Below are positions 3,015 to 16,457 of a stretch of DNA of 31,366 nt, in pieces. The position numbers and the translations under genes are program-made. The DNA is from Elusimicrobiota bacterium. GTDB lineage: Bacteria > Elusimicrobiota > Elusimicrobia > UBA1565 > UBA9628. The DNA lies in assembly GCA_027319565.1 (NCBI GenBank), contig DAHVNA010000026.1:1-31366 (forward strand), written 5' to 3'. How positions within the stretch are numbered: position 1 is the first letter of the stretch; every line of letters starts with the position of its first letter. The notes beneath the pieces are model-generated. The model had not been told where the DNA came from. It saw only the letters and a program-made list of their open reading frames with translations, and ran no database searches.

Positions 3015-3015
3015 T

Positions 3016-3822
3016 TTATTGATACCGAATCAGCTCGGTGTCAGGGCTTTCATAACCCGGCCCCGCGATCGTGGTTTTGATCTCTCCGACAAACGGGGCG
3101 TAGTAGGTGTATTTCCAAGAGAGAGGAAATCTCCCGTAAGCTTCCTTGACTTTAAGGCATCCGGAAAAAACTCCCGCGGCGGTTTTCACCACAGAAGAGG
3201 TAGAAATAATCTCAAAATACTTGCTATTTTTTCCGCCGCTAAATTCCCATCTTTGTCCGGCATGGAAAGGATATTTGAGTATGGGAATCGAGGACGCGCC
3301 CTCGACACGAAAAACCGACCAATCCTTTTTTTGGAATAAGAATTTCCCGCGGCGGACTAGATTTTTACCCGCGTAGAGAGAACTGACGATGGCGTTTTTA
3401 TCCGCTTTTCCGCCCAGAGTTTTCCATTCGTCTTTCATGTTTTTGCCTAGGCTTAAACTGTCTCCGTATATCCAGGTTCTTCCGGGTTCTAAAGGGAAAT
3501 AATCCGGACAGCTTAAAATTCCGAGGACCGCTTGTTGAAACCAGGGATTTTTGGGAGGCAGATCGCGCGCGACCGATTCGTAATCGGAAACCGCCTGGTC
3601 GCAGCGGTGAAAGACCTGGGCCTCGATATCTCCCCGACGAAGCTTCACTTCTACGGCGCGGGAAGATTTTGGCGGCGAAATCTTTAAAAATTGATTATAG
3701 AGATTAAAGGCCGCGATTTTGTTTCCAACTCCGTCCTCTAACTTTCCGACGTGGTAGTCATATGAGGAGCATCCGGCGAAACTCATCAGACAAAGAAGAT
3801 AAAGGAAGTTTATTTTTTCCAT
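3016..3822 (-). CDS. Putative lipoprotein: helical TPR-like N-domain plus DUF3108/TapB-like beta domain
   Basis: Probable ATG at 3822, MEKINFLYLLCLMSFAGC with lipobox FAG-C; DYFPLEPGRTWIY and VKTAAGVFSGCLKV...YYAPFVGEIK patterns. Confidence 0.6.
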   Translation of the reverse strand: MEKINFLYLLCLMSFAGCSSYDYHVGKLEDGVGNKIAAFNLYNQFLKISPPKSSRAVEVKLRRGDIEAQVFHRCDQAVSDYESVARDLPPKNPWFQQAVLGILSCPDYFPLEPGRTWIYGDSLSLGKNMKDEWKTLGGKADKNAIVSSLYAGKNLVRRGKFLFQKKDWSVFRVEGASSIPILKYPFHAGQRWEFSGGKNSKYFEIISTSSVVKTAAGVFSGCLKVKEAYGRFPLSWKYTYYAPFVGEIKTTIAGPGYESPDTELIRYQ

Positions 3823-3832
3823 TGTTTGCCGA

Positions 3833-4366
3833 TTAAGATAAGAGCCCATGGGCGCGAAAACTAAAAAAACCTTTTTTAGATACGATGAGGTGATCTAAAA
3901 GGGGAATTCCCAGAAGTTCTCCAGATTCTTTAAGCCGCCGAGTCGCGGTTTTATCTTCCGGAGAGGGAGAACAATCTCCCGAGGGGTGATTATGCGCGAC
4001 GATAAGCGCCGCAGAAGAGTGGCTGATGGCGGGCGCGAAAACTTCTCGCGGATGGACTAAACTCGCCGACAAGGTTCCTATGGAGACGGTTTCCGATAGG
4101 ATTAGCTGATTTCTTGAGTTTAAATAGAAAGCCAAAAAATTTTCCTTTTTCGCGGCTTTGACCGAAAAAGGAATCTGTTCCGCCACTCGTTCGGGGGCGT
4201 CAAGAATAGGCGGCATCTCTGGCTCAAAATCCGTTTCAATGATAGATTCCGTTTTCGGATTTTCCCGAATGAGAGGATTAAGAATTGAAATTAAAATCCC
4301 GGCCAAATCCTGAGCGCTCAGAGGAGCTTGAAAACCTTGTGGGAAAGCCGATATTGGGGGTTTCAT
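3833..4366 (-). CDS. radC: RadC/YicR-family JAB (MPN+) domain protein
   Basis: KENFLAFYLNSRNQLI, SIGTLSASLVHPREVF, AHNHPSGDCSPSPED, LLGIPLLDHLIV; probable ATG at 4366 overlapping the upstream TGA. Confidence 0.85.
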   Translation of the reverse strand: MKPPISAFPQGFQAPLSAQDLAGILISILNPLIRENPKTESIIETDFEPEMPPILDAPERVAEQIPFSVKAAKKENFLAFYLNSRNQLILSETVSIGTLSASLVHPREVFAPAISHSSAALIVAHNHPSGDCSPSPEDKTATRRLKESGELLGIPLLDHLIVSKKGFFSFRAHGLLS

Positions 4367-5388
4367 GGAATTGAAGCAGCGATGCGAGTTAATTTGTCCG
4401 TCTCCAAGGAAGAAACCAGAACCATCCTTAAGGAATTTTTCTGCCATGTCAGGGTTTTGACTTCGCTGTCGCGCGAGAGATAAGCGGAGGCTCCATTTTT
4501 GAGGGAGATTTTTTCTCCGCTCATTTTAGAGCCTAGATCTTTATACTCAAATAGAGAAATGGCGTTAATTCCGTCAGAGAATTCTTCTTGAATGACGGGA
4601 TGTCCCTGGTGAACGAGAGTTCTGATGTGGTCGAGCGCGTATCCAAAAGGAAGCCAGGAGGGAGTCAGGGGAGCGATTTTAAATTGCTTTTTTGCGCTTT
4701 GAAGAGAGATATCTAAAGACTCTTGAGCGGGATGAGATTTCTTGGGAGGTTTAAAAGCGAACCATTTTGGGGGAACGGGTTTTTTAACGAAAAATCTTAT
4801 CTTTTTGAAGTCGGATTTAGACTTTAATCGGCCGGAATCGTCGTAGACTTCGGTTTTAAGAATAACGCCATATTTAGGATCAAGCCAAAATATGCGGGAC
4901 AGGGAATGATTTTCCTTGGAGAATAGTTTGATTTTAAAAGCGCGTCTTCCGGCGGCATGGGAGGCCTTGGGCGAAGAAACGTCGTAATTGGCCTTAAGAG
5001 TATTTAATTCTTTTTGATTGTCTAGGGGAGCCGTGGGCGGCATTTTCCAATATTTCTTCGTGTCCCGGCGATAAATCCATTCTTCTTTATCGTTTAAAAT
5101 CGCGATTTCCTTGACCTTCCCGTTGGAGCCGAATACCTCGCGGCGGTAAAAATGGGGTGGGGCAAAACGAATGGAAGTCACAAAAGAGCCGCTGGATAAA
5201 TGAGAGGAGGCTGTCAATTCCATTTTGCCTTGATAAGGAACGGGCGATCCTTTGAGACTTTGGGCGATAAGGTCCCAGGAATTAGGCGTAATGTGTTTTT
5301 GGGGCGTCCGGGCCTGGAGAAAAAGCGGCGTAAAGACTACCCACAGGGCCCAGAAAACCGCGTTTGATAATGGATTTCCCATCTTCAT
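4363..5388 (-). CDS. MucB/RseB-like periplasmic sigma-E regulator
   Basis: Signal peptide; LolA-like region (AGRRAFKIKL, RIFWLDPKYGVILKTEVYD); C-domain PSWLPFGY and FSDGINAISLFE typical of MucB/RseB; third gene of an ECF operon. Confidence 0.75.
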   Translation of the reverse strand: MKMGNPLSNAVFWALWVVFTPLFLQARTPQKHITPNSWDLIAQSLKGSPVPYQGKMELTASSHLSSGSFVTSIRFAPPHFYRREVFGSNGKVKEIAILNDKEEWIYRRDTKKYWKMPPTAPLDNQKELNTLKANYDVSSPKASHAAGRRAFKIKLFSKENHSLSRIFWLDPKYGVILKTEVYDDSGRLKSKSDFKKIRFFVKKPVPPKWFAFKPPKKSHPAQESLDISLQSAKKQFKIAPLTPSWLPFGYALDHIRTLVHQGHPVIQEEFSDGINAISLFEYKDLGSKMSGEKISLKNGASAYLSRDSEVKTLTWQKNSLRMVLVSSLETDKLTRIAASIP

Positions 5389-5837
5389 TGGATTTCCTCG
5401 GCTCTCGGAAGGGCCAATTCCGTTTGAGATAAAGGGAGGCTCATCGCATATTCATTGTGAGCGGCCAATATCCAGTTCAGAGAAGGTTCGCTGGAAGGCT
5501 TAGGGAAAAATCGCGATCTAAACAAAAGTAAAGCCATGGCGGCGGCAAAGCCAAAACTGAGGGTTAAAGAAAGCCTCAGCGGCCAGGCGTGTTTTATCTG
5601 ATTTTGAGGTCGTTCTTTTCGTTTGAGAGAAGAGATAATTTCTTGAGCGAGGCTTTCCGGCATGGCGGGAATATACTCTGTAGAGGCGGCGCCCTTTTTT
5701 AAAAGAAGAAGTATTTCTTTTTCTTTCTGGCAGGCGGGGCATTGAGCGAGGTGCATGAGGGTCTGTTCTTTTTCTGTGCCCGTAAGTTCGCCGTCCACCA
5801 AGGCGTTGATATTTTCTTCCCAGACTTCGCACGTCAT
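5385..5837 (-). CDS. Zinc-finger (zf-HC2/ZAS) membrane-anchored anti-sigma factor
   Basis: MTCE...ALVDGEL...HLAQCPAC (HxxxCxxC), one TM helix, coupled to the ECF sigma by ATGA overlap. Confidence 0.88.
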   Translation of the reverse strand: MTCEVWEENINALVDGELTGTEKEQTLMHLAQCPACQKEKEILLLLKKGAASTEYIPAMPESLAQEIISSLKRKERPQNQIKHAWPLRLSLTLSFGFAAAMALLLFRSRFFPKPSSEPSLNWILAAHNEYAMSLPLSQTELALPRAEEIQ

Positions 5838-6367
5838 AAAGGGACCTCCTTAAATCGCTCTAAAAGCTTTATTTTTAACGCGCGCCGGGCCCGGGCGATG
5901 CGGGACCTGACTGTTCCCAAGGGACATCCCAGGGTTTGGGCGATCTGTTCATAAGAAAAGCCCTCCATATCGCAAAGAGTGAGAATGGCGCGGTATTCGC
6001 CGCTGATTTCCCGAAGACATTCTTCGACCGTCTTGGCCGTTTCCCGCCTCAGGAGCCGCTCTAAAAGAGGTTCTTCTCTATCCGCGAGCTTGTCGGCGAA
6101 GGTTTCAAGCCCGTTTTGAGGGTTAATGGGCGCGTCTAAAGAAAGGTTGAGAGAGCTTTTTCTGGAGACAGAGTCATAATAGATGTTTCTGAGGATCGTA
6201 AAAAAATAGCGATCGAAAGACTGGGAAGCGTCATAGCGTTCCCAGGTGCTTAAAACGCGCGCAAAGGCTTCTTGGACCAATTCCTTGGATTCCTCCACGT
6301 TTCCGGAAAGGCGATAGGCGAAATAGTATCCCTTTTCGGCGTATTGTTTAATTAAGCGATCAAGCAT
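5834..6367 (-). CDS. ECF RNA polymerase sigma factor (RpoE/SigW-like)
   Basis: Region 2 (AYRLSGNVEESKELVQEAF, YFFTILRN) and region 4 (EGFSYEQIAQTLGCPLGTVRSRIARARRAL). Confidence 0.92.
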   Translation of the reverse strand: MLDRLIKQYAEKGYYFAYRLSGNVEESKELVQEAFARVLSTWERYDASQSFDRYFFTILRNIYYDSVSRKSSLNLSLDAPINPQNGLETFADKLADREEPLLERLLRRETAKTVEECLREISGEYRAILTLCDMEGFSYEQIAQTLGCPLGTVRSRIARARRALKIKLLERFKEVPL

Positions 6368-6393
6368 AGCCTTGAATGAGACCTCTATACTGA

Positions 6394-6418
6394 TACGGAT
6401 GAGCCGCCAAAAAGTTCC
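6394..6418 (-). promoter_or_regulatory. Putative ECF autoregulatory promoter GGAAC-N16-CGTA
   Basis: Minus strand reads GGAAC-TTTTTGGCGGCTCATC-CGTA just upstream of the sigma ATG, matching the AAC-N16-CGT ECF promoter pattern. Confidence 0.65.
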
Positions 6419-6440
6419 CTCATTCGTCGAGAACGGCTTT

Positions 6441-6449
6441 ATTGTAGCA
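6441..6449 (-). promoter_or_regulatory. Putative extended -10 (TGcTACAAT) housekeeping promoter for the ECF operon
   Basis: Motif match only. Confidence 0.4.
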
Positions 6450-6498
6450 ATTCTGTTTTTCCCCGGCGGGCCGGCTATTTAGGTATAATGATAAAATC

Positions 6499-6572
6499 GG
6501 TGCGATACCCAAGTGGTCCAAGGGGACGGTCTGCAAAACCGTTATTCGCGGGTTCGAATCCCGCTCGCACCT
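6499..6572 (+). tRNA. tRNA-Cys (GCA)
   Basis: Acceptor stem GGTGCGA/TCGCACC, U discriminator, anticodon arm ACGGT-CTGCAAA-ACCGT, T arm GCGGG-TTCGAAT-CCCGC; CCA not encoded; TATAAT at 6484-6489. Confidence 0.95.
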
Positions 6573-6892
6573 TCGATATTCAGAGATAGAAAGTCGATTA
6601 AAAAAGAAGAGATTTTCCGGCGATCAGAGTTCCGAGTAAAAAAAATAAAACTAGTGAAATATCCGGAGATCTCTTGCTGGGCCGTTAAAACCCTGCCCTC
6701 AATCTCGAATTTTTGTCCGTGAATTTCCCAGGATAAGAGAACCCTGGACCCAACCTTGAGGGGCGCTAAGCTTGTTAATGCCGCTCCCTGGGAAGACAAG
6801 CCCGTCAGTCTTCCCCAATCTTCCTCCCGGGAGGGATCTGAAACGACAAGAAATCTCGCGGGAACGGCTCTGGGCAGAACGGTTTTTCTCAT
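6542..6892 (-). CDS. PilZ-like domain protein (degenerate ligand motifs)
   Basis: GRLTGLSSQGAAL (cf. D/NxSxxG), LKVGSRVLLSW, IEGRVL, FIFF...RRKISSFL follow the PilZ beta-barrel pattern; ATGA overlap with the upstream gene. Confidence 0.65.
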   Translation of the reverse strand: MRKTVLPRAVPARFLVVSDPSREEDWGRLTGLSSQGAALTSLAPLKVGSRVLLSWEIHGQKFEIEGRVLTAQQEISGYFTSFIFFTRNSDRRKISSFLIDFLSLNIEGASGIRTRE

Positions 6893-8040
6893 AAAGGATT
6901 GGGCTTTTGATGCCGAAATAGAATCGCTTTAGCTGAGCCGGCTGGCAGGCTTTGGGCGACAGTCCAGAAGTTTTTTCCGTCAAATCCAAGTCCCGTGGGA
7001 GCGTATTTCCCATTGGAATACTCGGGAAGCGGGGTTTTCGAGATAATTTGATCGGGGTGATTGATGTCGTGAAGGAGTATTTCTCTGTCAGGACCGTCTA
7101 AAGACCACAGGGAGTTGTGGATAAAAACAAGCGCGGTCGCTTGCGTTCCGGGATAGGGATAAGACGCGACTTCGCTTAAGCGAGAATCGGTGAGTCTTTT
7201 TGAGAGTCTTTTAGTCGCGCTGTTATAGGTCCAAAGGTAAAGCCCGTCAAAGGCGATAGCCGTTGTTTCGGGAACCTGATTGTAAGATTCAACTGGGGTG
7301 AGGCTGAGGTTTTTGAGCCGACGAACGATTTTTCCCGAGGCGTCCACGGTCCAAATGGCGTTGGGAGTCACGGCGATGGAAACGGGCATCTCATTGGGGA
7401 AATGAATAACCCGTTTGACGGCCCAAGAGCCTGTCGAATGCTCATAAAGAGACTGGCTGAACCAGTCGGCGACCCAGGCGTTTTCTCCGTCAAAGGCTAG
7501 GGCCGAGGGATAAAAATAAGGCAGAACCCAGGAATTTCTTTGCGAGAGTTGAGCCTCTCTAAGGGTTTCCGCGTGTTTGTGAATTATCCAGCCCGTAAGT
7601 CCCAAGGCCAATAGGGCCGTAAAAAAGAAAGCGTAAAAATATAATCCGCGAAGCGATGCGGGGGGGACCAGCGAAAGAGAAACGACGGGAAGTTTCCCGG
7701 CCCGGTTGAGGGCGGCCCTTAATTGTTCCTTGCCCAAAGGAAAAGAAAGGACTTCTTCAGATCCCAGGAGCATTAATTTAACGGCGCGCTGGGCGTCTCT
7801 GGAACTCAGAATGGAAATAACGGGCTTTTGAGGAAATAGAGAAATAGTTTCGCGCACAATTTCCTCAAAAGAAGAATTTTCTTCCAGGACCATGATGAGG
7901 CGCGGGTTTTGGGATCCGATGATTTCCTTAAGGCCGGCGAGATTGTCGACTCCGTAAACCAGGACCCCGATTTCTCCCAAGAGAAGCGAGATCTCGCGTC
8001 TTTTTTCCTCGGAAGAAGACAAGAGCGCAATTGAGATCAT
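6889..8040 (-). CDS. Membrane protein: receiver-like N-domain, one TM helix, beta-propeller-like C-domain
   Basis: PVISILSS...AVKLMLLGSEEVLSFP resembles REC a4-b5; TM at about aa 133-153; repeats ALAFDGENAWVAD, AIAFDGLYLWTY, GLGFDGKNFWTV. Confidence 0.6.
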   Translation of the reverse strand: MISIALLSSSEEKRREISLLLGEIGVLVYGVDNLAGLKEIIGSQNPRLIMVLEENSSFEEIVRETISLFPQKPVISILSSRDAQRAVKLMLLGSEEVLSFPLGKEQLRAALNRAGKLPVVSLSLVPPASLRGLYFYAFFFTALLALGLTGWIIHKHAETLREAQLSQRNSWVLPYFYPSALAFDGENAWVADWFSQSLYEHSTGSWAVKRVIHFPNEMPVSIAVTPNAIWTVDASGKIVRRLKNLSLTPVESYNQVPETTAIAFDGLYLWTYNSATKRLSKRLTDSRLSEVASYPYPGTQATALVFIHNSLWSLDGPDREILLHDINHPDQIISKTPLPEYSNGKYAPTGLGFDGKNFWTVAQSLPAGSAKAILFRHQKPNPL

Positions 8041-8043
8041 AAA

Positions 8044-9417
8044 TCAAGGCGGCGGCGGAATCGTAAACACGCTTCCTTCTTCGGGAATGCCGCGATTTAT
8101 TTTATCTTGATTGGCGTCATAGATCACTTCCCAATCATCGGGGTTGTGATAGTATTTTTTCGCCAGAGAGCGCAGGGTATCCCCGGCCTCAATTCTATGC
8201 TTTTGAGGCCAGAGAGCTTTGGGGGCGGCTTTAGGGCGCGGAAGCGCTTGCGGTTGCGCGGGAGCGGTGTTGAGAAGTTGGTTCTTTAACTCGGATTGTT
8301 TAATTTGGTATTTCAGTTCGTCATTTTTCTTTTGAAGGGTTTGATACTGGTTTTGAAGATCCTTGACGCGGGATTCCAAGACGTTGAGTTCTCCCGAGGT
8401 GATGTCTTTGCCGGTTTGAAGAGTTGTAAGCGCGGTTTGGGTTTGAGATTCTTTCTCGCCCAAGGACTGAATTTCTTCTTTTAGAGATTCCGCTTCCTGG
8501 GCCGCGTTTCCGACAAATTTGCTCCAGAAAGACGGGGCGCCGAAGAAATAATTGAAGCTGACTTCATACCCTCCGCCTTGGCGGTTGATCGAAGAGGTCG
8601 GGAAATCCCAAGCGACATCCAAGGTCACGGGGGAGAGATCGATTCCAAATCCGAAGGCCCATTGGGGAATGCCGTCGAGCTGAAAACCCTTTCCGGTTCT
8701 CAGTTTAAGAAGTCCCTCATCAAAGGAGGCTTCAAGCCCCGGGTAAAACTCAAGCAGATGCTGTTGTTGATAGATATCTCCGGCCAGGGTGAGCCATTTA
8801 TGCCAGGTGTAGGATGATCCGAGATCAAGAGCCGCGGGGATATTGGATTCCGTGGTTAGATTCATGACCGTCAAGGAAGATCTTAGCCCGGAATTTGATC
8901 GCGCGATCACTCCGGCGTCCATTCCAAGCCCGAAGGTTCCCGAGGAATGAGGGCCTTTGCTGTCGTTGATGAACTGCATGTTCGCTCCCACCTGGAGGGG
9001 ATTGGATAAGGGAATCCCTTGGGGAGACCAGTCTTGCGCATAATTGAGAAGGAGAGTATTTTGCCCGGGGCCGTTAGTCTGTTGTTCTCCCAAATAAGCG
9101 GCTCCCACGGTCGCGGTATTTTTAGGGTCGTAAGGCCGCACATAGCTTAAAGCGTCGTAAGACATGGGGCCGTTGGGAGAATCAAGCCGCCCCATCGTCC
9201 CGCCGGTTTGGGTGTAAGCGGTATTGGCGGTTCCCGCCGGGTTAAAGAAAAGCCCGTCTGGGCCCGAGGCAATTGAGGAATAGGCCATGCCCATGCCCAT
9301 TCCCGCCGCTCCGGGGCGAAAATCAAAGAGATTATCGGCCCATAATCGCGGGAGAACAAACGAGAAAATAAGGGATAAGAGAACGCCGCTAAAAATCCAA
9401 TGCCTTTTCCAATTCAT
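8044..9417 (-). CDS. Outer-membrane PorV/FadL-like beta-barrel fused to a coiled coil and C-terminal LysM
   Basis: Signal peptide; GAAGMGMGMAY...LFFNPAG motif; amphipathic strands; heptad region at about aa 305-380; HRIEAGDTLRSLAKKYY...WEVIYDAN...FTIP LysM. Confidence 0.7.
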   Translation of the reverse strand: MNWKRHWIFSGVLLSLIFSFVLPRLWADNLFDFRPGAAGMGMGMAYSSIASGPDGLFFNPAGTANTAYTQTGGTMGRLDSPNGPMSYDALSYVRPYDPKNTATVGAAYLGEQQTNGPGQNTLLLNYAQDWSPQGIPLSNPLQVGANMQFINDSKGPHSSGTFGLGMDAGVIARSNSGLRSSLTVMNLTTESNIPAALDLGSSYTWHKWLTLAGDIYQQQHLLEFYPGLEASFDEGLLKLRTGKGFQLDGIPQWAFGFGIDLSPVTLDVAWDFPTSSINRQGGGYEVSFNYFFGAPSFWSKFVGNAAQEAESLKEEIQSLGEKESQTQTALTTLQTGKDITSGELNVLESRVKDLQNQYQTLQKKNDELKYQIKQSELKNQLLNTAPAQPQALPRPKAAPKALWPQKHRIEAGDTLRSLAKKYYHNPDDWEVIYDANQDKINRGIPEEGSVFTIPPPP

Positions 9418-9465
9418 TTGTATAAGAAAAGGATAGGGGGTTAATGTTAAGAAATAATTGACAGT

Positions 9466-9542
9466 CTAAAGGCTAAAAAAACCTTTGACCCCGGAGACAA
9501 GGACGGCGTTGACGTGGCCAAAGAGAATGTCGATTTGCATCT
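9466..9542 (-). repeat. Direct repeat copy A: orphan duplicate of the last 24 codons and stop of the DUF3108-like gene
   Basis: 73/77 identical to 10846-10922 (offset 1380); reads MQIDILFGHVNAVLVSGVKGFFSL-TAG. Confidence 0.95.
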
Positions 9543-10745
9543 TTACGCTTTCCTCAAAGGATGCTTTCCCCAGTCCGGCATGACCCGAATCATAAAATCA
9601 TTGAAAAGAGGGACCGTAAAAGCCGTATCGCCGTGAGCCGGACTGTAGATCATTCCCTTGCCGATCAGCCCCGCGCGCAACGGCGCGCTGGACTGGACTT
9701 TAATGCCGAGACGATCGGCAATCTCGCTAGAGCGATGCGGTCCAGGCCCCAATTCAGCCAAAGCTCTCAAATAGTCTTTTTCGCGCGGGGTCAAGCGGTC
9801 AAACCGGACTCGAAAAAAGCTTCCGTCGAGTTTTTTAACCGCTTCAACGTTGGCGCGCAGGATGACGCTTCTGTTAATAGGCGACTCTTTCGCTAAATTC
9901 CAAGCCTGATATCCCCACTCTTGAAGGAAGTAGGGGTATCCCCGAGTCTGAAGCGCGATTTCCTTGAGCGCGTCTTCCGCAAAGACGACACCTTCTTTTT
10001 TTGCGGGGTCGCGCAAAGCCGCTGCCGCATCCTTGGGAGAAAGAGGGCCAATCTCGGGAAATCGGAATAGTCGTTCCGCGTAAGATTTCGATCTCCCGGC
10101 CAGGCCGATCAGCTGAGGCAAACCCGCTGAGACAAGCGCCAGCGGCAATTGGCGCTGAGACACGCGGTGTATTGCCATGATTAGCGCGCCCATCTCTTCT
10201 TCGTTTAAGTATTGAATTTCGTCGATAATGATGGCGACGGCTCTTTGCCTATCCTTGGCGGCTTCTCCCAGCGCGACAAAGAGTTCCGAAAGATCGGACT
10301 CCAAATTCCCTGAATCCGCCTTGCCTCTTTCAGGGTCAATTCCTAACTCGACCCCAGTCTCGCCGAACTTGATCTTGAACGTCCCGATAAAACTCCGGAG
10401 AACGCGCAATCCTAACTTCACCTTAGCGCTAATTTTCTCCATTCTGTCGAGTTCTATGAGCGTCCCCCGAAGACCGGGGATAAGGAGTTCGGGAAGGGAG
10501 CGGTCCTCGGAAATTTCGATCATCACGACGCAATATTTTTCAGCTTCGGCAATATCCTTGATGCGATTAAGTAAAACCGTTTTCCCGACGCCTCTCAGCC
10601 CGACAAGCATGAGGCTTTGCTCATAGCGCCCGCGTTTGATTCTGCCAAGCACGATAGCGGCCTCTTTGAGCAAATCATCGCGGCCGGCGAGTTCCGGCGG
10701 CGGATTTCCCGCGCCTGGAGAAAACGGGTTTTTAAGCGGATCCAT
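9543..10745 (-). CDS. AAA_16-type P-loop ATPase with probable C-terminal winged HTH
   Basis: NPFSPGAG.PP.LAGRD, Walker A GLRGVGKT, Walker B IIIDEIQ, GYPYFLQ, C-terminal SSEIADRLG...LRAGLIGKGMIY. Confidence 0.85.
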   Translation of the reverse strand: MDPLKNPFSPGAGNPPPELAGRDDLLKEAAIVLGRIKRGRYEQSLMLVGLRGVGKTVLLNRIKDIAEAEKYCVVMIEISEDRSLPELLIPGLRGTLIELDRMEKISAKVKLGLRVLRSFIGTFKIKFGETGVELGIDPERGKADSGNLESDLSELFVALGEAAKDRQRAVAIIIDEIQYLNEEEMGALIMAIHRVSQRQLPLALVSAGLPQLIGLAGRSKSYAERLFRFPEIGPLSPKDAAAALRDPAKKEGVVFAEDALKEIALQTRGYPYFLQEWGYQAWNLAKESPINRSVILRANVEAVKKLDGSFFRVRFDRLTPREKDYLRALAELGPGPHRSSEIADRLGIKVQSSAPLRAGLIGKGMIYSPAHGDTAFTVPLFNDFMIRVMPDWGKHPLRKA

Positions 10746-10773
10746 ATATAGGAAGTTTACCAGATTATCTAGT

Positions 10774-10796
10774 GTTTATCAATATATTGAATAAAC
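10774..10796. promoter_or_regulatory. AT-rich near-palindrome, candidate operator of the ATPase gene
   Basis: GTTTATCAATATATTGAATAAAC is self-complementary apart from one extra base, about 30 bp upstream of the ATPase ATG. Confidence 0.5.
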
Positions 10797-10845
10797 TTTA
10801 TATAAATATATCATTTGGCGTTGTTTCCCTGGTTTGCGCGGGACT

Positions 10846-10922
10846 TTAAAGGCTAAAAAAACCTTTGACCCCGGAGACAAGGACGGCGTTGACGTGCCCA
10901 AAGAGAATATCGACTTGCATCT
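10846..10922 (-). repeat. Direct repeat copy B: current 3' end of the DUF3108-like gene
   Basis: Reads MQVDILFGHVNAVLVSGVKGFFSL-TAA. Confidence 0.95.
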
Positions 10923-11715
10923 GAACGGGAATTTTTTTGGCGTCATCGGTCAGCCAGACCTGGAGTTTGCGGCCTTTTTGGACAAAGATTCCGTGCTTGC
11001 GGACCAAGGGCTCGACTAACACCGTGTCGAAGGTTCCGGCAGGAACGGTGATTTTTTCTTTTCTGAGAACTCGAACTAAGAGCGGCCAGTTTTTCTTGGT
11101 GTTCACATTGACAAAAACGTTTTTTCCCGGAGTCAGGGTTTGAGAGCGAAGATAATAGAGGCTTGAGAGAATATCTTGGATGTGGGAGATGATCGGCCCC
11201 GTTGAATAAGAGACGCTTCCGGTCTTTGAGACCGTTTTGGCTAAAAAAGAGTGGGTATCGTGATTGAAAAAGACCCATTCATCCCTGAAAAAATGACCTT
11301 CTCTTAAATTTTTTGAATATCCCAGGGAGGAAAGATTGGTCGCGTCCATCCACGATTCGTTGAGATCTCGGACTTTATAGAAGGCGTCGCAAAAAGAGTT
11401 GGAGCGAGCCCGGCTAATGATGTGGTAAGCCGTTTTTCCGGCAAAAGAGACTTTTTGGGCGACTTCCAAGGAAGCTTCGCCGACATTAACCGGGCCCCAG
11501 GAGATTTCAAATTTTAAATTTTCGGGAAAAACGGTCAAAGCCGTTAACGGCGCGCTTGAAGGAGAGATCTCGGGCTTTTCCAATTTGTGGATATTGGACA
11601 AAGTGGAAGAGGAAATGAGCGGGAGGGTCAGTTCCGTAGCGGAGGCCGGCAAGGAAATTAAGAACAGCAAAAAAGAGAGTTTTTTCATTGACCCTATTCT
11701 CCAAATATCTTTCAT
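10846..11715 (-). CDS. DUF3108-family exported protein (start may be ATG 11688)
   Basis: Signal peptide MKKLSFLLFLISLPASA; ENLKFEISWGPVNVGEA, FYKVRD, DILSSLYYLR, ITVPAGTFDT, VWLTDDAKKIPVQM. Confidence 0.8.
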   Translation of the reverse strand: MKDIWRIGSMKKLSFLLFLISLPASATELTLPLISSSTLSNIHKLEKPEISPSSAPLTALTVFPENLKFEISWGPVNVGEASLEVAQKVSFAGKTAYHIISRARSNSFCDAFYKVRDLNESWMDATNLSSLGYSKNLREGHFFRDEWVFFNHDTHSFLAKTVSKTGSVSYSTGPIISHIQDILSSLYYLRSQTLTPGKNVFVNVNTKKNWPLLVRVLRKEKITVPAGTFDTVLVEPLVRKHGIFVQKGRKLQVWLTDDAKKIPVQMQVDILFGHVNAVLVSGVKGFFSL

Positions 11716-12839
11716 CCGAGAAGCGCTTTTTCCCAGATTTCTTGTCCTTGAGTGATTTTTAATTTGATGGCTAAAGCGTATAACTCTCCGGACAAGGTCT
11801 CTTTCCAGCCCAGAGGTAGGCGAGTCGCGTCTTTAAGAGTGGTCAAAAACGCTCGCCCTGAGCGCACGGTTTCAATGGCCTTGAGTTCCTCGATTTGATA
11901 GGGGTGATGATCAGGAAACCGCCAGCGCTGCTCGATGCGGGCTCCCAATTCCGTGAGCTGATTTTCAAAAAGCTGCGGAAAGGCGATTCCGGAAACGGTG
12001 ACGATTCTTCTTCCCTCCAAAAGCGAAACGTCGAGCTTTCTTTGGGTTTTGATATCCAATAGGAAATCCGGCACGTGAGAGGCTTCCAGTATCTCCGCTT
12101 TGGGGCTCATTGCCGCTATTTTTTCGCGGAGAAGCTTGAGGTCTTTCTTGGCAATTAAATCGGCATGGGTGATGACAATCATCTGAGCGCGCCTGAGAGC
12201 GGAGGCGGGCTCCCTGAGGTTTCCGGCGGGCAGAAGGCGGTCTTCGGTAAACGGAGAGGCGGCATTGACAAGGACAATGTCGAGATCGTGTTTAATTTTC
12301 CAATGCTGAAACCCATCGTCTAAAATCAACGCTTTTGAATGATAAAAGGTGATTGCCTCTTGCCCGGCTTTCACGCGATTTTTAGAGACCAGGATTGGGA
12401 TGTTGAGTCCAAAGAGGGCTTGGTGCATCATCCAGGGCTCGTCTCCGCATTCTTCCCAATGCGGAGGATTGTCGTCAAGCAGGGTGACGACTTCGGAAGA
12501 GTTTTTCGAGCGGTTATATCCGCGGCTGAGAATGGCGAGGGATTGGCCGTGGCTGTGAAGAGTTTTGGCGGCCAATATCGCGGCGGGAGTTTTTCCGGTT
12601 CCCCCGACGCTTAAATTACCAATTGAGATCACCCGCGCCGGCAGGCGGATTGATTTTTTGAGGCCCATGCCGTAAGCCAGTTTGCGGAGAATGAGTCCCA
12701 ACCAAAATCCGAAACTGAGGAATTTTAAAAAGGCGGGGCCGAGAGGATGAGTTTTGATCTGTTCGCGGCGGTTTTCCCAGCTTCCAACCGAGACGCGACG
12801 ATCGTTGATTTCATCGAGAGGCTTTTCAGTTTCAAGCAT
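11712..12839 (-). CDS. lpxK: Tetraacyldisaccharide 4'-kinase
   Basis: VISIGNLSVGGTGKTP, ILSRGY, GDEP, ILDDGFQH, LLPAGNLREP, FPDHH. Confidence 0.95.
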   Translation of the reverse strand: MLETEKPLDEINDRRVSVGSWENRREQIKTHPLGPAFLKFLSFGFWLGLILRKLAYGMGLKKSIRLPARVISIGNLSVGGTGKTPAAILAAKTLHSHGQSLAILSRGYNRSKNSSEVVTLLDDNPPHWEECGDEPWMMHQALFGLNIPILVSKNRVKAGQEAITFYHSKALILDDGFQHWKIKHDLDIVLVNAASPFTEDRLLPAGNLREPASALRRAQMIVITHADLIAKKDLKLLREKIAAMSPKAEILEASHVPDFLLDIKTQRKLDVSLLEGRRIVTVSGIAFPQLFENQLTELGARIEQRWRFPDHHPYQIEELKAIETVRSGRAFLTTLKDATRLPLGWKETLSGELYALAIKLKITQGQEIWEKALLG

Positions 12840-12842
12840 ACC

Positions 12843-13841
12843 TTATTGTACGAGATTTGTCAGGAAATCTCTGACTTCTCCAAAAACTTCGTCGGCTGAA
12901 ATAGAGTTAAGACACGAGAGGCTTTGACAGAGGTGTTCGTTTTTAGACTCTTCGCGGCAAGGGCAGGACTTCTGGATAAAGCGATGCCTCTTGGGATCGG
13001 GAAAGGTCCAACTGACCGGAGAGTGCGGGCCGTAAATGGTGAAGGTCGCGACTTCCAAGGCCGCGGAGATATGTTTGACGCCGTTGTCGTTGCCGATAAA
13101 CAAATCCGCTCCTTCAATGAGAGCGGCGAGATCCATGAGGTTCCCGGTTGGAGGCGCAATCAGGGGTTTGTGTTTCATGGCGGCGGCAACTTGATCGGCA
13201 TTTTCTTTTTCTCCCGGCCCCCAGACGATTAAAATTGAGGCGCCAAGATCGGAAATGAGCCGGTCGGCCAGCGCGGCATAACGGTTTAACGGCCAGCGGT
13301 TAAAATGTCTTCGGGACACCGGGGATAAAACGATTCGGGGGCGGGAGATCGGATTTTTGGAAAAGAAATCCCGGGCGAAGGCTTTGGACTCATTCGGGAT
13401 TTTAATTTCCGCGCTCAAGTTCCCATGGAATTTGACTCCTAAGGGCTCTAAAAGGCGGATTTTCTCTTCGGCGACATAGAATGAGCCCTTTGGATCCGGC
13501 AGGGGGTGATTATAGGCCCAGTGGTGGAATACGCGGGCCAGCCCGGCTCTGAGACTGGCGCCACTGAGCGCGGTTAAAACGGCGCTTCGCGGGGTGCCTA
13601 AAAAATCGATCACCCAATCGTACTTTTGAGCGCGTATTTGGCGTATCAAGCGCCAAGGATGTTTTTTGTCGTAAACAATCAGATGATCAATGTCCGGATT
13701 TCCCTTCAAAACTTCCGCCGCCGGGTTTTCAGCGAGAAAGTCCACCGTCGCTTCGGGGAAATTTTTTTTGAGTTCCTTGACCGCGGGAGTTGTCAGAAGA
13801 GCGTCTCCAATGCGGTAGAGCTGTATGACCAAAATTTTCAA
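12843..13841 (-). CDS. GT9 ADP-heptose:LPS heptosyltransferase (WaaF/WaaQ-like)
   Basis: Probable TTG start at 13841 (KILVIQLYRIGDALLTTP) overlapping the upstream TGA; FIGNDNGVKHISAAL, IYGP. Confidence 0.85.
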   Translation of the reverse strand: MKILVIQLYRIGDALLTTPAVKELKKNFPEATVDFLAENPAAEVLKGNPDIDHLIVYDKKHPWRLIRQIRAQKYDWVIDFLGTPRSAVLTALSGASLRAGLARVFHHWAYNHPLPDPKGSFYVAEEKIRLLEPLGVKFHGNLSAEIKIPNESKAFARDFFSKNPISRPRIVLSPVSRRHFNRWPLNRYAALADRLISDLGASILIVWGPGEKENADQVAAAMKHKPLIAPPTGNLMDLAALIEGADLFIGNDNGVKHISAALEVATFTIYGPHSPVSWTFPDPKRHRFIQKSCPCREESKNEHLCQSLSCLNSISADEVFGEVRDFLTNLVQ

Positions 13842-14650
13842 AGTCGGGCTCTTCCGCGCGTGAGATTGAGATGGAAATCGAGCATGAAATCGTCTCCGCG
13901 AATAAAAAGCCGCCGAATCGGAGAAGCTGCCTGTTTCCACGGAAAGGGACTTAAGCCTTGCTTGACGCTGAAATCGTAGAGGTATCCCGCATCCAGAGCG
14001 GCTTGGCGAACCTTGGGGTTAAAGGCTCCCGAGCCGTAGGGATAGGCAAAGGCCTCGACGGTCCTTCCCAAAAGCTCTTCAAGGCGTTTTTTGCTTTCGG
14101 TGAGTTCCCAGACAACATCCGGCATGGGCGCGTTATCGAGATTGCGATGGCGCATGGTGTGAGAGCCAAACTCAACGAGTCCCGACTCCTGCATTTGCAG
14201 AATCTCTTCTTTTTTCAGCATCGGAATGCGGATTTCAGTTTCCGGCTCATGCCAGACATTGTCTTTTCCGATGGTCTCAAAGACAAGAAAAATATTTCCC
14301 TTCATTCCGAAATTCTTGAGAATGGGAAACGCTTCTTTATAGTTATTGGCGTAGCCGTCATCAAAAGTGATTAAAACCGGTTTTTGGGGAAACCCTTTTT
14401 CCTGCGCTTCAAATTTCTGGATTTCAGAAAATAGAATAGGCGTATATTGATGGGCCCTTAAATAGGCCAACTGTTGGCGGAACTGCGCGGGGCTGACCCA
14501 AAGTTTTTTGAGTTTGGATCCCTGTGGCGGGATTCCTATTTTGTGATACATCAAGACCGGAACTCCTTTGGCCCGAGGCCGCCACCAATTCCAGCGCGCG
14601 CTGATTCCAGTCGCCGCTCCCATTCCGATTCCGATAAGCCCCGCGATCAT
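13838..14650 (-). CDS. Polysaccharide deacetylase (NodB/CE4 family) with N-terminal anchor
   Basis: PVLMYHKI, LITFDDGY, FGSHTMRH, FAYPYG. Confidence 0.9.
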   Translation of the reverse strand: MIAGLIGIGMGAATGISARWNWWRPRAKGVPVLMYHKIGIPPQGSKLKKLWVSPAQFRQQLAYLRAHQYTPILFSEIQKFEAQEKGFPQKPVLITFDDGYANNYKEAFPILKNFGMKGNIFLVFETIGKDNVWHEPETEIRIPMLKKEEILQMQESGLVEFGSHTMRHRNLDNAPMPDVVWELTESKKRLEELLGRTVEAFAYPYGSGAFNPKVRQAALDAGYLYDFSVKQGLSPFPWKQAASPIRRLFIRGDDFMLDFHLNLTRGRARL

Positions 14651-15417
14651 CGTTGATTCTCCTTGATTTCTAATTCTTTTAGTTTGACATATTTAAGCCA
14701 ATGGTGAAATGCCGACAACGCCGCCCAGATAATTCCCGGATTTCCGTCTAAAATTCCGAATTTAAGAAACAGGCGCGAGAATATTTCCCAGGGCAATATC
14801 AGGTGATGCCAAAAATAAAAACGCTTTCCCTGCGCGCGCCCTTTGCGAGTTGAGAAATCCAGATAAGACGTCATCTTGTTTAAATATTCCCCGAGGTCTT
14901 TATAGGGCTTGTGAGAGACAAAGCCGGAAAAAAGAAGCGCTTTGCGGCCGGAGATCTCAAGTCCCTCGTGAATGAGGCCTCCCGCGAAGCGGCCCTTTAA
15001 ACGCTTAAATAATCTCAGATGCTTTTCGTGTCCAACTCCGCCAAATCTTAAAGCGCGTCCCATGAATTCGATTTGAAAGCGCAAGATGATTCCGTCAATT
15101 TCGCCGGGGCCAGAGATAAAGCGGAGAATCTCTTCTTTTAAAAGCGGGCTAATGCGTTCATCGGCATCGATGGATAAAATCCAATCCGCGGTCGCCAGTT
15201 CCAAAGCCGCCTGCTTTTGTTCGGCATATGAAGTGAAAACTCTCTTGAGAATCTTGCAGCCATGTTCGCGGGCGATGTCTTCGGTTTTGTCGGAGCTTTC
15301 GGCGTCTATGACGACGACGATTTCTTCCGCCAAGCCTTTGAGGCTCAATAAGCACCCCGGTAAATCCTCTTCTTCGTTTTTGGCGATGATAATCGCGCCG
15401 AGAGAACGCGGGCTCAA
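14647..15417 (-). CDS. GT2 glycosyltransferase (KdtX/WaaE-like)
   Basis: IIAKNEEEDLPGCL, SSDKT, WILSIDADER, LRLFKR, IHEG, GILDG. Confidence 0.88.
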   Translation of the reverse strand: MSPRSLGAIIIAKNEEEDLPGCLLSLKGLAEEIVVVIDAESSDKTEDIAREHGCKILKRVFTSYAEQKQAALELATADWILSIDADERISPLLKEEILRFISGPGEIDGIILRFQIEFMGRALRFGGVGHEKHLRLFKRLKGRFAGGLIHEGLEISGRKALLFSGFVSHKPYKDLGEYLNKMTSYLDFSTRKGRAQGKRFYFWHHLILPWEIFSRLFLKFGILDGNPGIIWAALSAFHHWLKYVKLKELEIKENQR

Positions 15418-16457
15418 GAATTTTCTCCCAGTATTTTTTTAAACACCTGTTCGGATTTCTCCCCGAATTTTTCGAGGCTCAATAAAGTCTCAAAACGCTT
15501 TTTGGATTCTTGCCCCATTCTTTGGGCTTCCTGAGGAAAGTCAATCAGTTTTTTGACGCCGGATGCCAATTCATCGGCATTTCCAGGCGCGAATAAGAGC
15601 CCATTTTCTCCCTCGCGAATTAAATCCGGAAGACCGCCGACGCGGCTTGAAATGACCGGGCGCCCGGCCGACATCCATTCTAGAGTCGCGCGCGAGACTG
15701 CTTCAGAACCCAAGGATGAGACGATCCCAATCCGGCAGCTGGAAATAAATTCCCAAATGTCCTCAACTCGCCCCAAAAATTCGACGGAACTTCCCAATTC
15801 CAGCTGGCGAACTTTATTTTGGAGAACCCCCAGCCTCTCGGGGCTGGATTCTCCGGCGATTAAAAATTTTATGTTGGATAAGCGGGTTTTCAGAATCGAG
15901 GCCGCCTCAATAAAGGTTTCATGCCCCTTGATTTTATCTAAGCGGCCCAGGATTCCTATCGCGCCTTCAGGCTCCCAGGGAATTTCCCGCGGCGGGCCTT
16001 CTGTTCCCTGAAAGACCAGATCAATGGAGGCGGAGGGAGAAGCGGCCTTAAGGCTTTCTCGGATCGCCGTATTGGCGGCGATAAAATGAGAAATCGTTTT
16101 AAGACCGAGTCTTGACAGGAAATTTCTTCCCGGCAGCCGCGCGTCGGCAAAGGTGCGAATGAGAACGGCTTTTCCGCGAACAGCCAGCCCGAGGCTTTGG
16201 GCGGAACCGGTCAAAGCGTCGATAATCGAAATTTGGTCTTCTGCTATTTTCCGCCTTAATTGAGGCAGGGAAAGCCAAGGCCTTTTAAGCGGCAAATAAT
16301 CCATGGATAACCGCTTACATTCTTTTTCGGCAAAAGACCTTTCCCTGCACCAAAATTGTACCGCGTGTCCGCGCCGTTTCATCTCGGAAGCGAGCGTCAG
16401 GCCGTAAGAGAGAATGCCGGAGTCCCAAGGTTCATCGTGCAGGAAGAGGATATTCAT
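15414..16457 (-). CDS. GT4 glycosyltransferase
   Basis: LGRLDKIKG, SEAVSRATLEWM (EX7E), PVISSRVGGLPDLIREGENGLL. Confidence 0.88.
   Translation of the reverse strand: MNILFLHDEPWDSGILSYGLTLASEMKRRGHAVQFWCRERSFAEKECKRLSMDYLPLKRPWLSLPQLRRKIAEDQISIIDALTGSAQSLGLAVRGKAVLIRTFADARLPGRNFLSRLGLKTISHFIAANTAIRESLKAASPSASIDLVFQGTEGPPREIPWEPEGAIGILGRLDKIKGHETFIEAASILKTRLSNIKFLIAGESSPERLGVLQNKVRQLELGSSVEFLGRVEDIWEFISSCRIGIVSSLGSEAVSRATLEWMSAGRPVISSRVGGLPDLIREGENGLLFAPGNADELASGVKKLIDFPQEAQRMGQESKKRFETLLSLEKFGEKSEQVFKKILGENS

Follow-up and report, generated by a model that had tools for sequence, protein, structure and literature searches.

A solitary AAA+ ATPase gene between two copies of a gene end in an Elusimicrobiota genome, and its likely travel as a one-gene cassette

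The window, that is, the whole stretch of DNA analysed, is 31,366 nucleotides long and comes from an Elusimicrobiota bacterium (assembly GCA_027319565.1, contig DAHVNA010000026.1). The features described here (Table 1) lie at the end of a row of LPS-core genes, in which glycosyltransferase genes and lpxK (11712-12839; LpxK, E 1e-78) precede a DUF3108 gene as the last member. The final 77 bp of the DUF3108 gene are present twice, with four differences, and enclose 1303 bp of inserted DNA. This duplication, described in a first-pass annotation of the window as two copies 1380 bp apart around one ATPase gene, was recovered by both a repeat search and blastn, and it is the sole direct-repeat family in the interval 8500-12000 (9467-9547 / 10847-10927, spacing 1380). 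Codon alignment likewise bore out the description of the differences as three silent changes and one Ile/Val replacement (GTC/ATC, GAT/GAC, GGG/GGC and TAA/TAG). The stop codon of the ATPase gene (TAA, 9543-9545) abuts the orphan copy directly; beyond that copy lies the native intergenic region, followed by the PorV-like/LysM gene. The repeat is not a chance match, since it aligns to a single-copy sequence in four sister genomes, nor is it a k-mer overlap artefact, since the two copies are non-identical. The 33-nt filler next to the in-gene copy has no counterpart in the cassette copies of two of these relatives, G003 and G004.

Table 1. Features of the ATPase insertion and its surroundings (positions in the window; a point marks features given no strand)
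Feature	Position	Strand	Evidence
Downstream neighbour, 457 aa, weak PorV/PorQ-like and LysM-like matches	8044..9417	-	NCBIfam NF033709, E 8e-9, below cut-off; synteny
Orphan copy A, last 77 bp of the DUF3108 gene, stop TAG	9466..9542	-	blastn, repeat search, Logan contigs
50-bp core (= 10847-10896), the only part in which the copies are indistinguishable	9467..9516	.	Repeat search; separate 50-nt unitig in 4 runs
Cassette gene, 400-aa AAA+ ATPase with C-terminal winged helix	9543..10745	-	Pfam AAA_16, AAA_22; AlphaFold2; Foldseek
AT-rich upstream region belonging to the cassette	10746..10812	-	Common to the G003 copy at another locus
Filler, 33 nt, between conserved cassette and copy B	10813..10845	.	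Alignment loses similarity; blastn homology to G003 ends at 10806
In-gene copy B, functional last 25 codons and TAA of the DUF3108 gene	10846..10922	-	Repeat search; Logan pieces 9771-10876 and 10654-10876, bridging cassette and copy B
Target gene, DUF3108 protein, 289 aa	10846..11715	-	Pfam PF11306, E 3e-38

The ATPase contains a Walker A motif (GVGKT, residues 52-56) and a Walker B motif (DE, residues 175-176), and 35 homologues have invariant residues. The AlphaFold2 model (pLDDT 84.7) has the architecture of Orc1/Cdc6, an AAA+ module followed by a winged-helix domain, and its best Foldseek matches were 2qby_A, 2v1u_A, 2qen and 2fna (E 1e-10 to 2e-8, TM 0.45-0.64). The predicted fold is Orc1/Cdc6-like. 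In this respect the protein resembles the archaeal Orc1/Cdc6 initiators and the archaeal PF01637-type ATPases, which likewise have a lid and a C-terminal winged helix in addition to the AAA+ module. It is unlike Orc1/Cdc6 in that it does not reach the TIGR02928 model of these initiators (32.3 bits against a cut-off of 181.3, with residues 16-67 alone matching) and in its identity of 16-19% to the structures. A phmmer search against PDB sequences gave nothing below E 0.2. Pfam, PADLOC and Foldseek revealed no nuclease or recombinase domain in the ATPase. Membership in a defence system was considered and rejected, the matches in PADLOC-DB 2.0 being weak and limited to short P-loop stretches (Cas3, mad8; best E 1e-4 to 4e-4), with Cas3 as the best match (E 1e-4, 54 residues). 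In PHROGs, the ATPase matched a family of unknown function (E 2e-12) and, weakly, a 'DNA transposition protein' (E 2e-5). Titles and opening lines of abstracts on COG1672 in defense and on Cdc6-like bacterial AAA+ proteins in mobile genetic elements held nothing relevant, although the ATPase family may still be described in that literature.

The upstream region contains a promoter-like sequence, TTGATA-17-TAAACT (10782 to 10754), which ends 9 nt before the ATG of the ATPase gene, and an imperfect palindrome (GTTTATCAATA/TATTGAATAAAC) with a third GTTTAC box. The ATG is not preceded by a visible Shine-Dalgarno sequence. In 140 dereplicated loci of the family, the AT content is 60-72% over positions -80 to -1, compared with 46-49% further up, and each upstream region carries 3-5 repeated boxes. 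From these features we infer an operator and a promoter in this region and an almost leaderless mRNA. The ATPase is likely to regulate itself by binding to the repeated boxes ahead of its own gene. Genes for Orc1/Cdc6 adjoin replication origins, and the ATPase gene similarly adjoins an AT-rich stretch with repeated boxes; here, however, the boxes overlap the promoter and may be a plain operator.

The four sister genomes (G005, G001, G004 and G003) align by blastn to positions 7000-9542 and 10846-13000 and to nothing between. Each has one copy of the 77 bp with contiguous flanks, and the overlap between the two aligned window segments is 77 nt on both G005 and G003 and 67 nt on G001. The empty site expected from the first-pass annotation, in which the DUF3108 gene is directly followed by the PorV-like/LysM gene, is therefore present in all four. 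G005 does not encode the ATPase. G001 has a copy of 55% identity with an in-frame stop at another locus, and G004 has a copy of 75% within an insert of 1763 bp, for which a matching empty site was found at G000:C38:18820-18857. In G003, the ATPase is encoded on another contig (96% aa identity; 91% nt identity over 1237 bp). The G003 cassette adjoins two AAA_14-DUF4143 genes. No flanking repeats were found at the G003 and G004 copies, and the G004 insertion is entirely without duplication. Of 41 genomes, the source genome among them, 12 encode the ATPase and 40 the DUF3108 protein. The empty sites, together with the lack of any integrase or transposase (Pfam, larger ORFs of the 31-kb window), uphold the description of the insert as an integrase-less unit of one gene.

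At least 8000 homologues of the ATPase were found, and relatives are encoded in 430 of 600 genome candidates and in 461 of 593 metagenome candidates. Identities of 56-77% occur in Elusimicrobia, Proteobacteria, Chlamydiae, Verrucomicrobia, Planctomycetes, Acidobacteria and Actinomycetota; across phyla, the ATPase and host phylogenies are discordant at this level of identity. Among 70 genome loci with complete flanks, 6 have repeats of at least 25 nt around the ATPase, compared with 3 of 239 shifted control windows. Beyond these six, the source window and locus L030 (164 bp of the dapA end, with the ATPase gene convergent) are also bracketed, as are 10 of 80 metagenome loci (repeats of 94-353 bp). 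Overall, about one locus in ten has bracketing direct repeats of neighbouring gene ends, 27-353 bp in length, and the check suggested in the first-pass annotation, whether close homologues also lie between duplicated gene ends, was thus positive in genomes and metagenomes. Duplicated 3' ends with a Pfam name belong to DHDPS, an ABC-F ATPase, a SPOUT methylase and a MarR/DAO pair, and duplicated 5' ends to an aminotransferase and a helicase; some loci have a convergent gene pair duplicated, and the ATPase gene occurs in either orientation. The idea that the cassette carries a replacement 3' end therefore does not apply throughout the family, since other loci duplicate 5' ends or a convergent pair. 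In 15 bracketed events the repeats are spaced 1349-2111 bp apart, leaving space for hardly more than the ATPase gene. Repeat and ORF are separated by 68-600 nt on the 5' side and 0-518 nt on the 3' side, and since these spacers vary the cassette has no fixed ends; no terminal motif was found. The footprint is not obligatory, given the unduplicated insertion in G004 and the roughly nine in ten loci that are free of repeats.

The two copies of a repeat differ across the family by 47 synonymous and 21 non-synonymous changes in 380 codons, as counted in eight segments of seven loci with a certain frame, eight further events being left out. A simple model of in-place divergence, built for this analysis, gives an expected synonymous share of 0.35-0.44 (binomial p 2e-7 to 3e-5). 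By codon position, the differences number 14, 11 and 51 (51 of 76 in third positions). Four contigs with the aminotransferase locus have cassettes of 99.0-99.9% identity. Loci L185 and L189 have flanks of 100% and 99.5% identity and identical in-gene copies, yet 14 of 188 positions (7%) are different in their orphan copies. That the in-gene copy of L185 had arrived with the cassette, a reading in which the left context of the orphan copy is unrelated, was rejected: the upstream stretches are homologous, with a 12-nt indel. The synonymous bias and the 7% difference between orphan copies at loci otherwise at least 99.5% identical mark the copies as homeologous. Homeologous copies point to host homologous recombination, and the alignments show allele swapping of orphan copies between otherwise near-identical loci. 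As a counterpoint, allelic replacement of a flank from cassette-free relatives would yield the same synonymous bias without movement of the cassette.

When G005 serves as the outgroup for the source window, three of the four changes, Val to Ile among them, fall on the orphan copy and a single silent one on the in-gene copy. Both copies have four common states that are absent from the copies of all five relatives. Sliding identity against G005, G003, G001 and G004 gave no breakpoint beside either copy, which rules against import of the in-gene copy with a foreign tract. The orphan TAG and the sequences after both stop codons may be pieces of the relatives' terminator palindrome, a reading for which the alignment is too short and ambiguous. 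With few differences, shared states and no breakpoint, an in-place duplication of the target fits the source locus equally well. Two claims of the first-pass annotation are accordingly supported for the family rather than for the window. The proposal that both copies evolved as coding sequence is supported family-wide by the synonymous excess and the third positions, the four differences of the window being too few, and the proposal that one copy came from a related genome is supported by the swapping of orphan copies at other loci.

To our knowledge, insertion with long target duplication has been without a mechanism since 2000 and has been tied to restriction-modification genes. The class is defined by Furuta, Abe and Kobayashi (2010), who cite Nobusato et al. 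(2000) as their reference 37 (PMC2853133). In the part of that article used here, it consists of a small restriction-modification gene unit that is present in one genome, absent from a relative and flanked by variable direct repeats of more than 30 bp; the repeats match a single-copy target, often overlap a gene end and are accompanied by no transposase or integrase, and in the cycle that the authors propose, such units invade, are amplified through the repeats and are released again (PMC2853133). Compared with that definition, the ATPase insert is missing from related genomes whose flanks align on either side, both repeats align to one single-copy sequence, with a duplication of more than 30 bp (77 bp), and the inserted unit is shorter than 20 kb (1303 bp) and has no other mobile-element gene; restriction or modification homologues, which belong to the definition, are lacking from the insert, the AAA_16/AAA_22 ATPase being its sole gene. 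Homeologous repeat copies, as found for the ATPase cassettes, are not addressed in this part of Furuta et al. (2010) (PMC2853133). Judged by sequence, the ATPase cassettes match the class and would extend it beyond restriction-modification cargo. Unlike the restriction-modification units, the ATPase cassette is a single gene, occurs in many phyla and encodes no recognisable nuclease, so that the cargo cannot itself cut the target.

Integrative islands and prophages enter the 3' end of tRNA, tmRNA and protein genes and restore that end by a copy borne on the element. The ATPase cassettes are like them in that foreign DNA sits between directly repeated gene ends, the target is intact and one copy may be foreign. 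They are unlike them in having no integrase or conserved att core, in entering unrelated targets, sometimes at 5' ends, and in the range of their repeats (27-353 bp). As regards a site-specific element, no recombinase gene was found by Pfam among the larger ORFs of the window, and the 15 bracketed events have no att core or kind of target in common. As regards an insertion sequence or DNA transposon, there is no transposase and no inverted repeat at the cassette ends, and the duplications are long and variable. As regards an integron cassette, judged by Pfam and layout, the window has no IntI-like gene, and the ATPase stop codon abuts the orphan copy, which would leave no room for an attC. In Campbell-type ('ends-in') integration, which is used for the insertion of suicide vectors, a single crossover through a piece of the target borne by the incoming DNA leaves the insert between direct repeats of that piece, with hybrid donor/recipient copies, and the reverse reaction excises it. 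The ATPase insert too lies between direct repeats of the end of its target; unlike with suicide vectors, Campbell-type entry would here be a natural and recurrent way of life.

The footprint recurs around ATPase relatives in many phyla, and the gene therefore likely travels as a tiny cassette, which is probably moved by host homologous recombination. The fuller account that we consider fairly probable is that a cassette of 1.3 kb, consisting of one ATPase gene of a widespread solitary family and its own promoter region, enters a genome by insertion with long target duplication and then passes between related genomes by host homologous recombination, using the duplicated gene end. The first insertion at a new locus would be a break-and-repair or recombination event that duplicates the target, and as this leaves one complete copy of the gene, insertion into a gene end would be survivable. 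Recombination of repeat with repeat would release the cassette together with a single copy. In a related cell, it would then be reinstalled at the cognate gene end by RecA-type recombination, which would leave homeologous repeats; this would be either a single crossover of a circle or a double crossover in which the orphan copy forms one arm. DNA without a use would subsequently be trimmed by deletions down to functional borders, which would explain that the repeats often end exactly at a start or stop codon, that the ATPase stop abuts the orphan copy at the DUF3108 locus, and that about nine in ten loci have no remaining repeat.

Among the other explanations, an assembly artefact, in which the assembly linked sequences of two co-resident strains, or a small free molecule, via the 50-bp core and the figure of 77 is the assembler word size, is extremely unlikely. 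The strain-variant contigs C82 and C75 do sit in the bin, C82 and C38 overlap by exactly 77 identical bases (suggesting k=77), and the same runs hold related populations with the cassette elsewhere. However, the two copies of the repeat differ at four positions and thus are not an overlap duplicate, and the core with both distinguishing bases fits inside a 77-mer. Moreover, another assembler reproduces every junction: Logan contigs (k=31) from four runs of one study matched all four junctions exactly (0 differences). The piece 8900-9496 bridges flank and orphan copy, the part specific to the orphan copy is joined to the ATPase end by 9487-9608 in run X1, 9487-9603 in X2 and X3 and 9504-9603 in X4, and the cassette is joined to the in-gene copy by the pieces listed in Table 1. 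The core is a unitig of its own, with a depth figure of 26-35 against 11-24 in the junction contigs. Contigs of k=31 cannot phase across the identical core, so that the choice between an integrated cassette and a circle plus an empty site rests on the original assembly; for the same reason, the lack of a circle or empty-site joint in these contigs is uninformative either way. Terminal overlap was absent from 10 short metagenome contigs (<2.6 kb), an approach that could hardly reveal circles. Flank and cassette contigs are of similar depth (19.9 and 18 in X1), and the same anatomy is seen in many unrelated assemblies, which also argues against an artefact. Vertical descent from a genus ancestor with cassette and repeats, followed by precise loss of the cassette through repeat recombination in the relatives, would recreate exactly the empty site of the four sister genomes, and the cassette, at 91% nt identity to the G003 copy, has diverged about as far as the flanks (87-89%). 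It is nonetheless quite improbable, as it requires four independent losses, all of them precise, where a single gain would do, the ATPase gene lies at two other loci in G003 and G004, and the family is scattered over phyla at 56-77% identity.

A larger integrase-bearing island, site-specific at the gene end (attL/attR) and since reduced to one gene, had been offered in the first-pass annotation and found no support. It would account for a target end restored by a carried copy, as in integrative elements; the 27-nt flanking repeat of locus L047 encodes a tyrosine-recombinase-like LLGHSSIKT motif (as read from the translation), and locus L093 has a perfect 44-nt repeat. The latter was considered as the 3' part of a tRNA, of which ARAGORN and Rfam (E up to 0.1) found no sign in L093. 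This origin is very unlikely in view of a 31-kb window without an integrase, of repeats that enclose the ATPase gene and little else in 15 bracketed events, and of targets, repeat lengths and orientations that all vary, unlike in a site-specific system. More weight, though still rather less than an even chance, is given to a pure in-place duplication: a single break-and-repair or transposition-like insertion with cuts at least 77 bp apart, after which both copies, derived from the cell's own gene, diverged in situ with no homologous recombination at the DUF3108 locus. Such an event is in keeping with insertion with long target duplication as published, and in the window it agrees with the four states common to both copies, with the three changes that the outgroup places on the orphan copy against one silent change on the working copy, and with the lack of an identity breakpoint near either. 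Against it, the repeat differences in the family show much too strong a synonymous bias for an orphan copy that decays in place, orphan copies are 7% apart between loci otherwise at least 99.5% identical, and the cassette encodes no enzyme able to make such cuts. A minimal selfish hybrid of replicon and integron is also conceivable, though improbable: the Orc1/Cdc6-type initiator and an iteron-like AT-rich origin upstream of it would fire locally or after loop-out through the flanking repeats, multiply as a 1.4-kb circle with one host gene end and re-enter related chromosomes by RecA recombination at that end. If this were true, an initiator-driven, integrase-free class of mobile elements would exist in most bacterial phyla, and the solitary AAA ATPase families DUF4143 and DUF234 would be variants of it.

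Spread of the cassette by host homologous recombination bears on the movement of solitary, patchily distributed bacterial genes without a recombinase of their own, which is poorly understood. The repeats would be a readable record of such movement, their homeologous and swapped copies pointing to spread among relatives by way of the carried gene end. For annotation, duplicated gene ends beside ATPases of this kind would be insertion scars and not pseudogenes. The footprint is seen at about a tenth of the loci of a very large, nuclease-free family that extends over many phyla and also to plasmids, where a homologue was found in 122 of 72,556 records, compared with 2 of 50,697 phage records.

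All genes within positions 3000-17900 of the window are located on the minus strand. A repeat search over 8500-12000 returned a sole long direct repeat (9467-9547 and 10847-10927, spacing 1380 bp), the clean duplicated part of which is 77 bp long and comprises the final 25 codons and stop of the DUF3108 gene (9466-9542, orphan copy A; 10846-10922, working in-gene copy B). The initial 50 bp are without difference, and re-reading of both copies returned the same four differences as the first-pass annotation (Val/Ile, two silent changes and TAA/TAG). Copy A is directly abutted by the TAA of the ATPase gene. The plus-strand GC skew is negative (-0.03 to -0.14) inside the cassette (9600-10800), where it changes sign, and positive in the neighbours, though the cassette gene has the same orientation as them.

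Coordinates of genes at the locus, independent contigs covering its junctions, and decaying ATPase homologues
Feature	Position	Strand	Remark
lpxK	11712-12839	minus	before DUF3108 gene
DUF3108 gene	10846-11715	minus	directly after lpxK
ATPase gene	9543-10745	minus	400 aa; after DUF3108 gene
PorV-like/LysM gene	8044-9417	minus	after ATPase gene
Flank to copy A	8900-9496		Logan contig
Copy A's own variants to ATPase end	9487-9608 (X1), 9487-9603 (X2, X3), 9504-9603 (X4)		Logan contigs
Cassette to copy B	9771-10876 and 10654-10876		Logan contigs
Decaying homologue	G001:C4:565987-567174
Decaying homologue	G023:C11:13406-14599
Decaying homologue	G032:C72:23410-23886

This anatomy is that of the 'insertion with long target duplication', a class set up for restriction-modification genes; PMC2853133 names as criteria an insert missing in a relative, repeats of more than 30 bp and variable length, and no mobility gene, and offers, as a proposal only, a cycle of invasion, amplification through the repeats, and release. 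In our reading, a promiscuous cassette of one gene has inserted here once more and duplicated a long piece of its target. The uninterrupted site that the first-pass annotation had suggested seeking in relatives is present in four sister genomes (G005, G001, G004 and G003), where the DUF3108 gene, with a single 77-bp copy, is directly followed by the PorV-like/LysM gene. In G003 the ATPase lies on a different contig (C16; 96% amino acid identity, 91% nucleotide identity across window 9570-10806), within a group of solitary ATPase genes (L043, 3670-8033) that also includes two AAA_14-DUF4143 genes and a 123-aa fragment of another AAA_16/ORC-CDC6-like gene, and the region right of the cassette is without counterpart in the window's genome. 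G004 holds a 75% copy within a 1763-bp insert without duplication, for which the window's genome has the corresponding empty site (C38:18820-18857). G005 has no ATPase copy; G001 has a 55% copy elsewhere, with an in-frame stop. With the window's genome counted in, 12 of 41 genomes have the ATPase and 40 of 41 the DUF3108 protein. Two of the decaying homologues contain an in-frame TAA or TAG, and the third consists of three short fragments only.

The ATPase family comprises at least 8000 proteins, and identities of 56-77% connect those from Elusimicrobia, Proteobacteria, Chlamydiae, Verrucomicrobia, Planctomycetes, Acidobacteria, Actinomycetota and further groups; homologues occur in 122 of 72,556 plasmid records versus only 2 of 50,697 phage records. 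When the 700 nt on either side of the ATPase gene were compared, direct repeats of at least 25 nt were found at 6 of the 70 genome loci whose flanks were complete and in 3 of 239 control windows shifted by 2.1 or 2.7 kb. The window and locus L030 are two further bracketed loci beyond these six. Among metagenome loci, 10 of 80 have repeats of 94-353 bp (91-97% identity), three of the ten and L085 representing one locus only. Close homologues are thus also bracketed by duplicated gene ends, as had been put forward for checking, in some 15 independent events, the two repeats being 1349-2111 bp apart. Among the Pfam-named targets, the 3' end is duplicated for one DHDPS gene (ATPase convergent), one ABC-F gene, one SPOUT methylase gene and both members of a convergent MarR/DAO pair, and the 5' end for an aminotransferase and a helicase gene; this variety indicates that the cassette enters in either orientation and at either type of gene end. 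One intact copy of the target gene is always left. In six events one border of a repeat is no more than 5 nt away from the intact gene's start or stop codon, and the ATPase stop abuts the repeat in four. The spacers between repeat and ORF are variable (5' 68-600 nt, 3' 0-518 nt), so the cassette has no fixed ends. At L060 (2375-2428) the ABC-F orphan copy carries a 44-nt palindromic insertion that the working copy lacks. In a Phycisphaerales MAG (L093) a perfect 44-nt direct repeat (3760-3803 and 5710-5753, 1950 bp apart) surrounds the homologue; it looked tRNA-like by eye, and neither ARAGORN nor Rfam found an RNA gene in it.

The origin of the copies was examined by codon comparison of eight gene-end segments with a certain reading frame, from seven loci, omitting L181, L185 and L189 (same event as L085) and L047, L093, L105, L119, L152, L180, L197 and L203 (frame uncertain or non-coding). 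Over 380 codons, 47 synonymous and 21 non-synonymous changes separate the copies, and 51 of 76 base differences fall at third codon positions (chi-square p 3e-9). Under a simple model of our own, in which the target is duplicated in situ and the orphan then drifts freely, a synonymous share of 0.35-0.44 is expected; the copies gave 0.69 (binomial p 2e-7 to 3e-5). Four contigs with the aminotransferase locus have cassettes that are 99.0-99.9% identical. Between L185 and L189 the left flanks and in-gene copies are identical and the right flanks 99.5% identical, yet 14 of 188 positions are different in the orphan copies; L085 and L185 are unrelated in sequence from the cassette to the downstream repeat. 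The synonymous bias and the differing orphan copies indicate that the repeat copies are, as a rule, alleles from different genomes united by homologous recombination. Two routes would fit such mixing equally: movement of the cassette with a carried gene end, or replacement of a flank from cassette-free relatives. In the window, copies A and B have in common four states absent from the copies of all five relatives; with G005 as outgroup, three changes fall on copy A and one silent change on copy B, and identity to the relatives (89-95% for G005) does not change abruptly next to copy A or copy B. The window's own evidence on copy origin is neutral, and the earlier proposal that one copy came from a related genome holds as a family rule, by the synonymous share and the L185/L189 orphans; the window by itself would fit an in-place duplication just as well. 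Pure in-place target duplication is here considered rather doubtful. Ancestral presence followed by precise losses is very unlikely. A decayed integrase island is highly improbable, and Pfam detected neither integrase nor transposase in the larger ORFs of the 31-kb window, where an ORF of more than 1414 aa (27124-31365) running past the window end has no Pfam match. In an Elusimicrobia MAG (L047), a 76% homologue lies between 27-nt repeats (89%; 3844-3870 and 5193-5219) whose translation, read by eye, contains a tyrosine-recombinase-like LLGHSSIKT motif in an ORF without Pfam family, with an HTH_17 (excisionase-like) gene immediately downstream.

An assembly chimera is barely credible, since the copies differ at four positions and each junction is exact in independent contigs. 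The window is contig C30 of a bin with 111 contigs, including strain variants; one of these has an overlap of exactly 77 identical bases with another contig, and the assembler may have used a word size of 77. The four differences rule out an overlap duplicate. The junctions were compared with Logan contigs (different assembler, k=31) of four runs (X1-X4) from a single mine-drainage study, and each was reproduced with 0 differences. The 50-bp core forms its own unitig (depth figure 26-35 versus 11-24 for junction contigs) and cannot be phased by Logan contigs, so the integrated arrangement rests on the original assembly. In X1 the flank and cassette contigs have similar depths (19.9 and 18). 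In one X2 contig (depth 8.9), 9737 is joined to 10692 through 7 other letters; a co-resident population has here lost 954 bp from within the ATPase gene.

In the favored reading, cassette insertion with long target duplication, the primary insertion event would duplicate the target, and the spread and reshuffling of cassettes among relatives likely proceed by homologous recombination via the gene end so duplicated. If DNA is deleted as far as the functional borders, this would account for junctions that fall exactly at codon edges and for most loci having lost their repeats.

The ATPase matches Pfam AAA_16 and AAA_22, and the Walker A and B residues are invariant across 35 homologues. The AlphaFold2 model (pLDDT 84.7, pTM 0.81) predicts an AAA+ module, lid and winged helix; its best structure matches are archaeal Orc1/Cdc6 initiators bound to origin DNA (2qby_A, E 1e-10; 2v1u_A), archaeal PF01637-type ATPases (2qen, 2fna) and RuvB. 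Membership in the Orc1/Cdc6 family fails by sequence (32 bits versus a cut-off of 181). No nuclease or recombinase domain was found in the protein, PADLOC, PHROGs and PDB sequence searches returned nothing specific, and source annotations read 'AAA family ATPase' or 'ATP-binding protein' and nothing further. The 65 nt preceding the ATG are common to the window and the G003 copy and contain a promoter-like TTGATA-17-TAAACT ending 9 nt from the ATG, and an imperfect palindrome plus third half-site of GTTTAT/ATAAAC. Across 140 dereplicated loci the AT content is 60-72% from -80 to -1 and 46-49% farther upstream. Boxes recur three to five times in the -80 to -1 stretch (GTTTATC/GATAAAC, or GTATAAC spaced by about 10-11 nt), which lacks a Shine-Dalgarno sequence. 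These motifs suggest that the winged helix mediates self-regulation and that the mRNA is nearly leaderless, and the region may conceivably have an origin-like role.

Contig C82 (L004, 1510 bp), binned with the window's genome, carries a second, G003-like allele of the lpxK end and the entire DUF3108 gene. Directly past the DUF3108 TAG (junction 1265-1270) it continues into a yajQ-like region otherwise on C38, not into the PorV-like/LysM gene. A Logan contig contains this junction too (loose end at window 10847); the DUF3108 stop codon is in this way the breakpoint of a second rearrangement. The palindrome GGGAC[A/T]GTCCC occurs 16 times in the window's genome versus about one expected (in the window at 24137), mostly flanked by an A-run and a T-run, and resembles a shared bidirectional terminator hairpin or REP-like element. 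The sister genomes have one such palindrome right after the DUF3108 stop; past both stop codons in the window only short pieces, possibly derived from it, are present.
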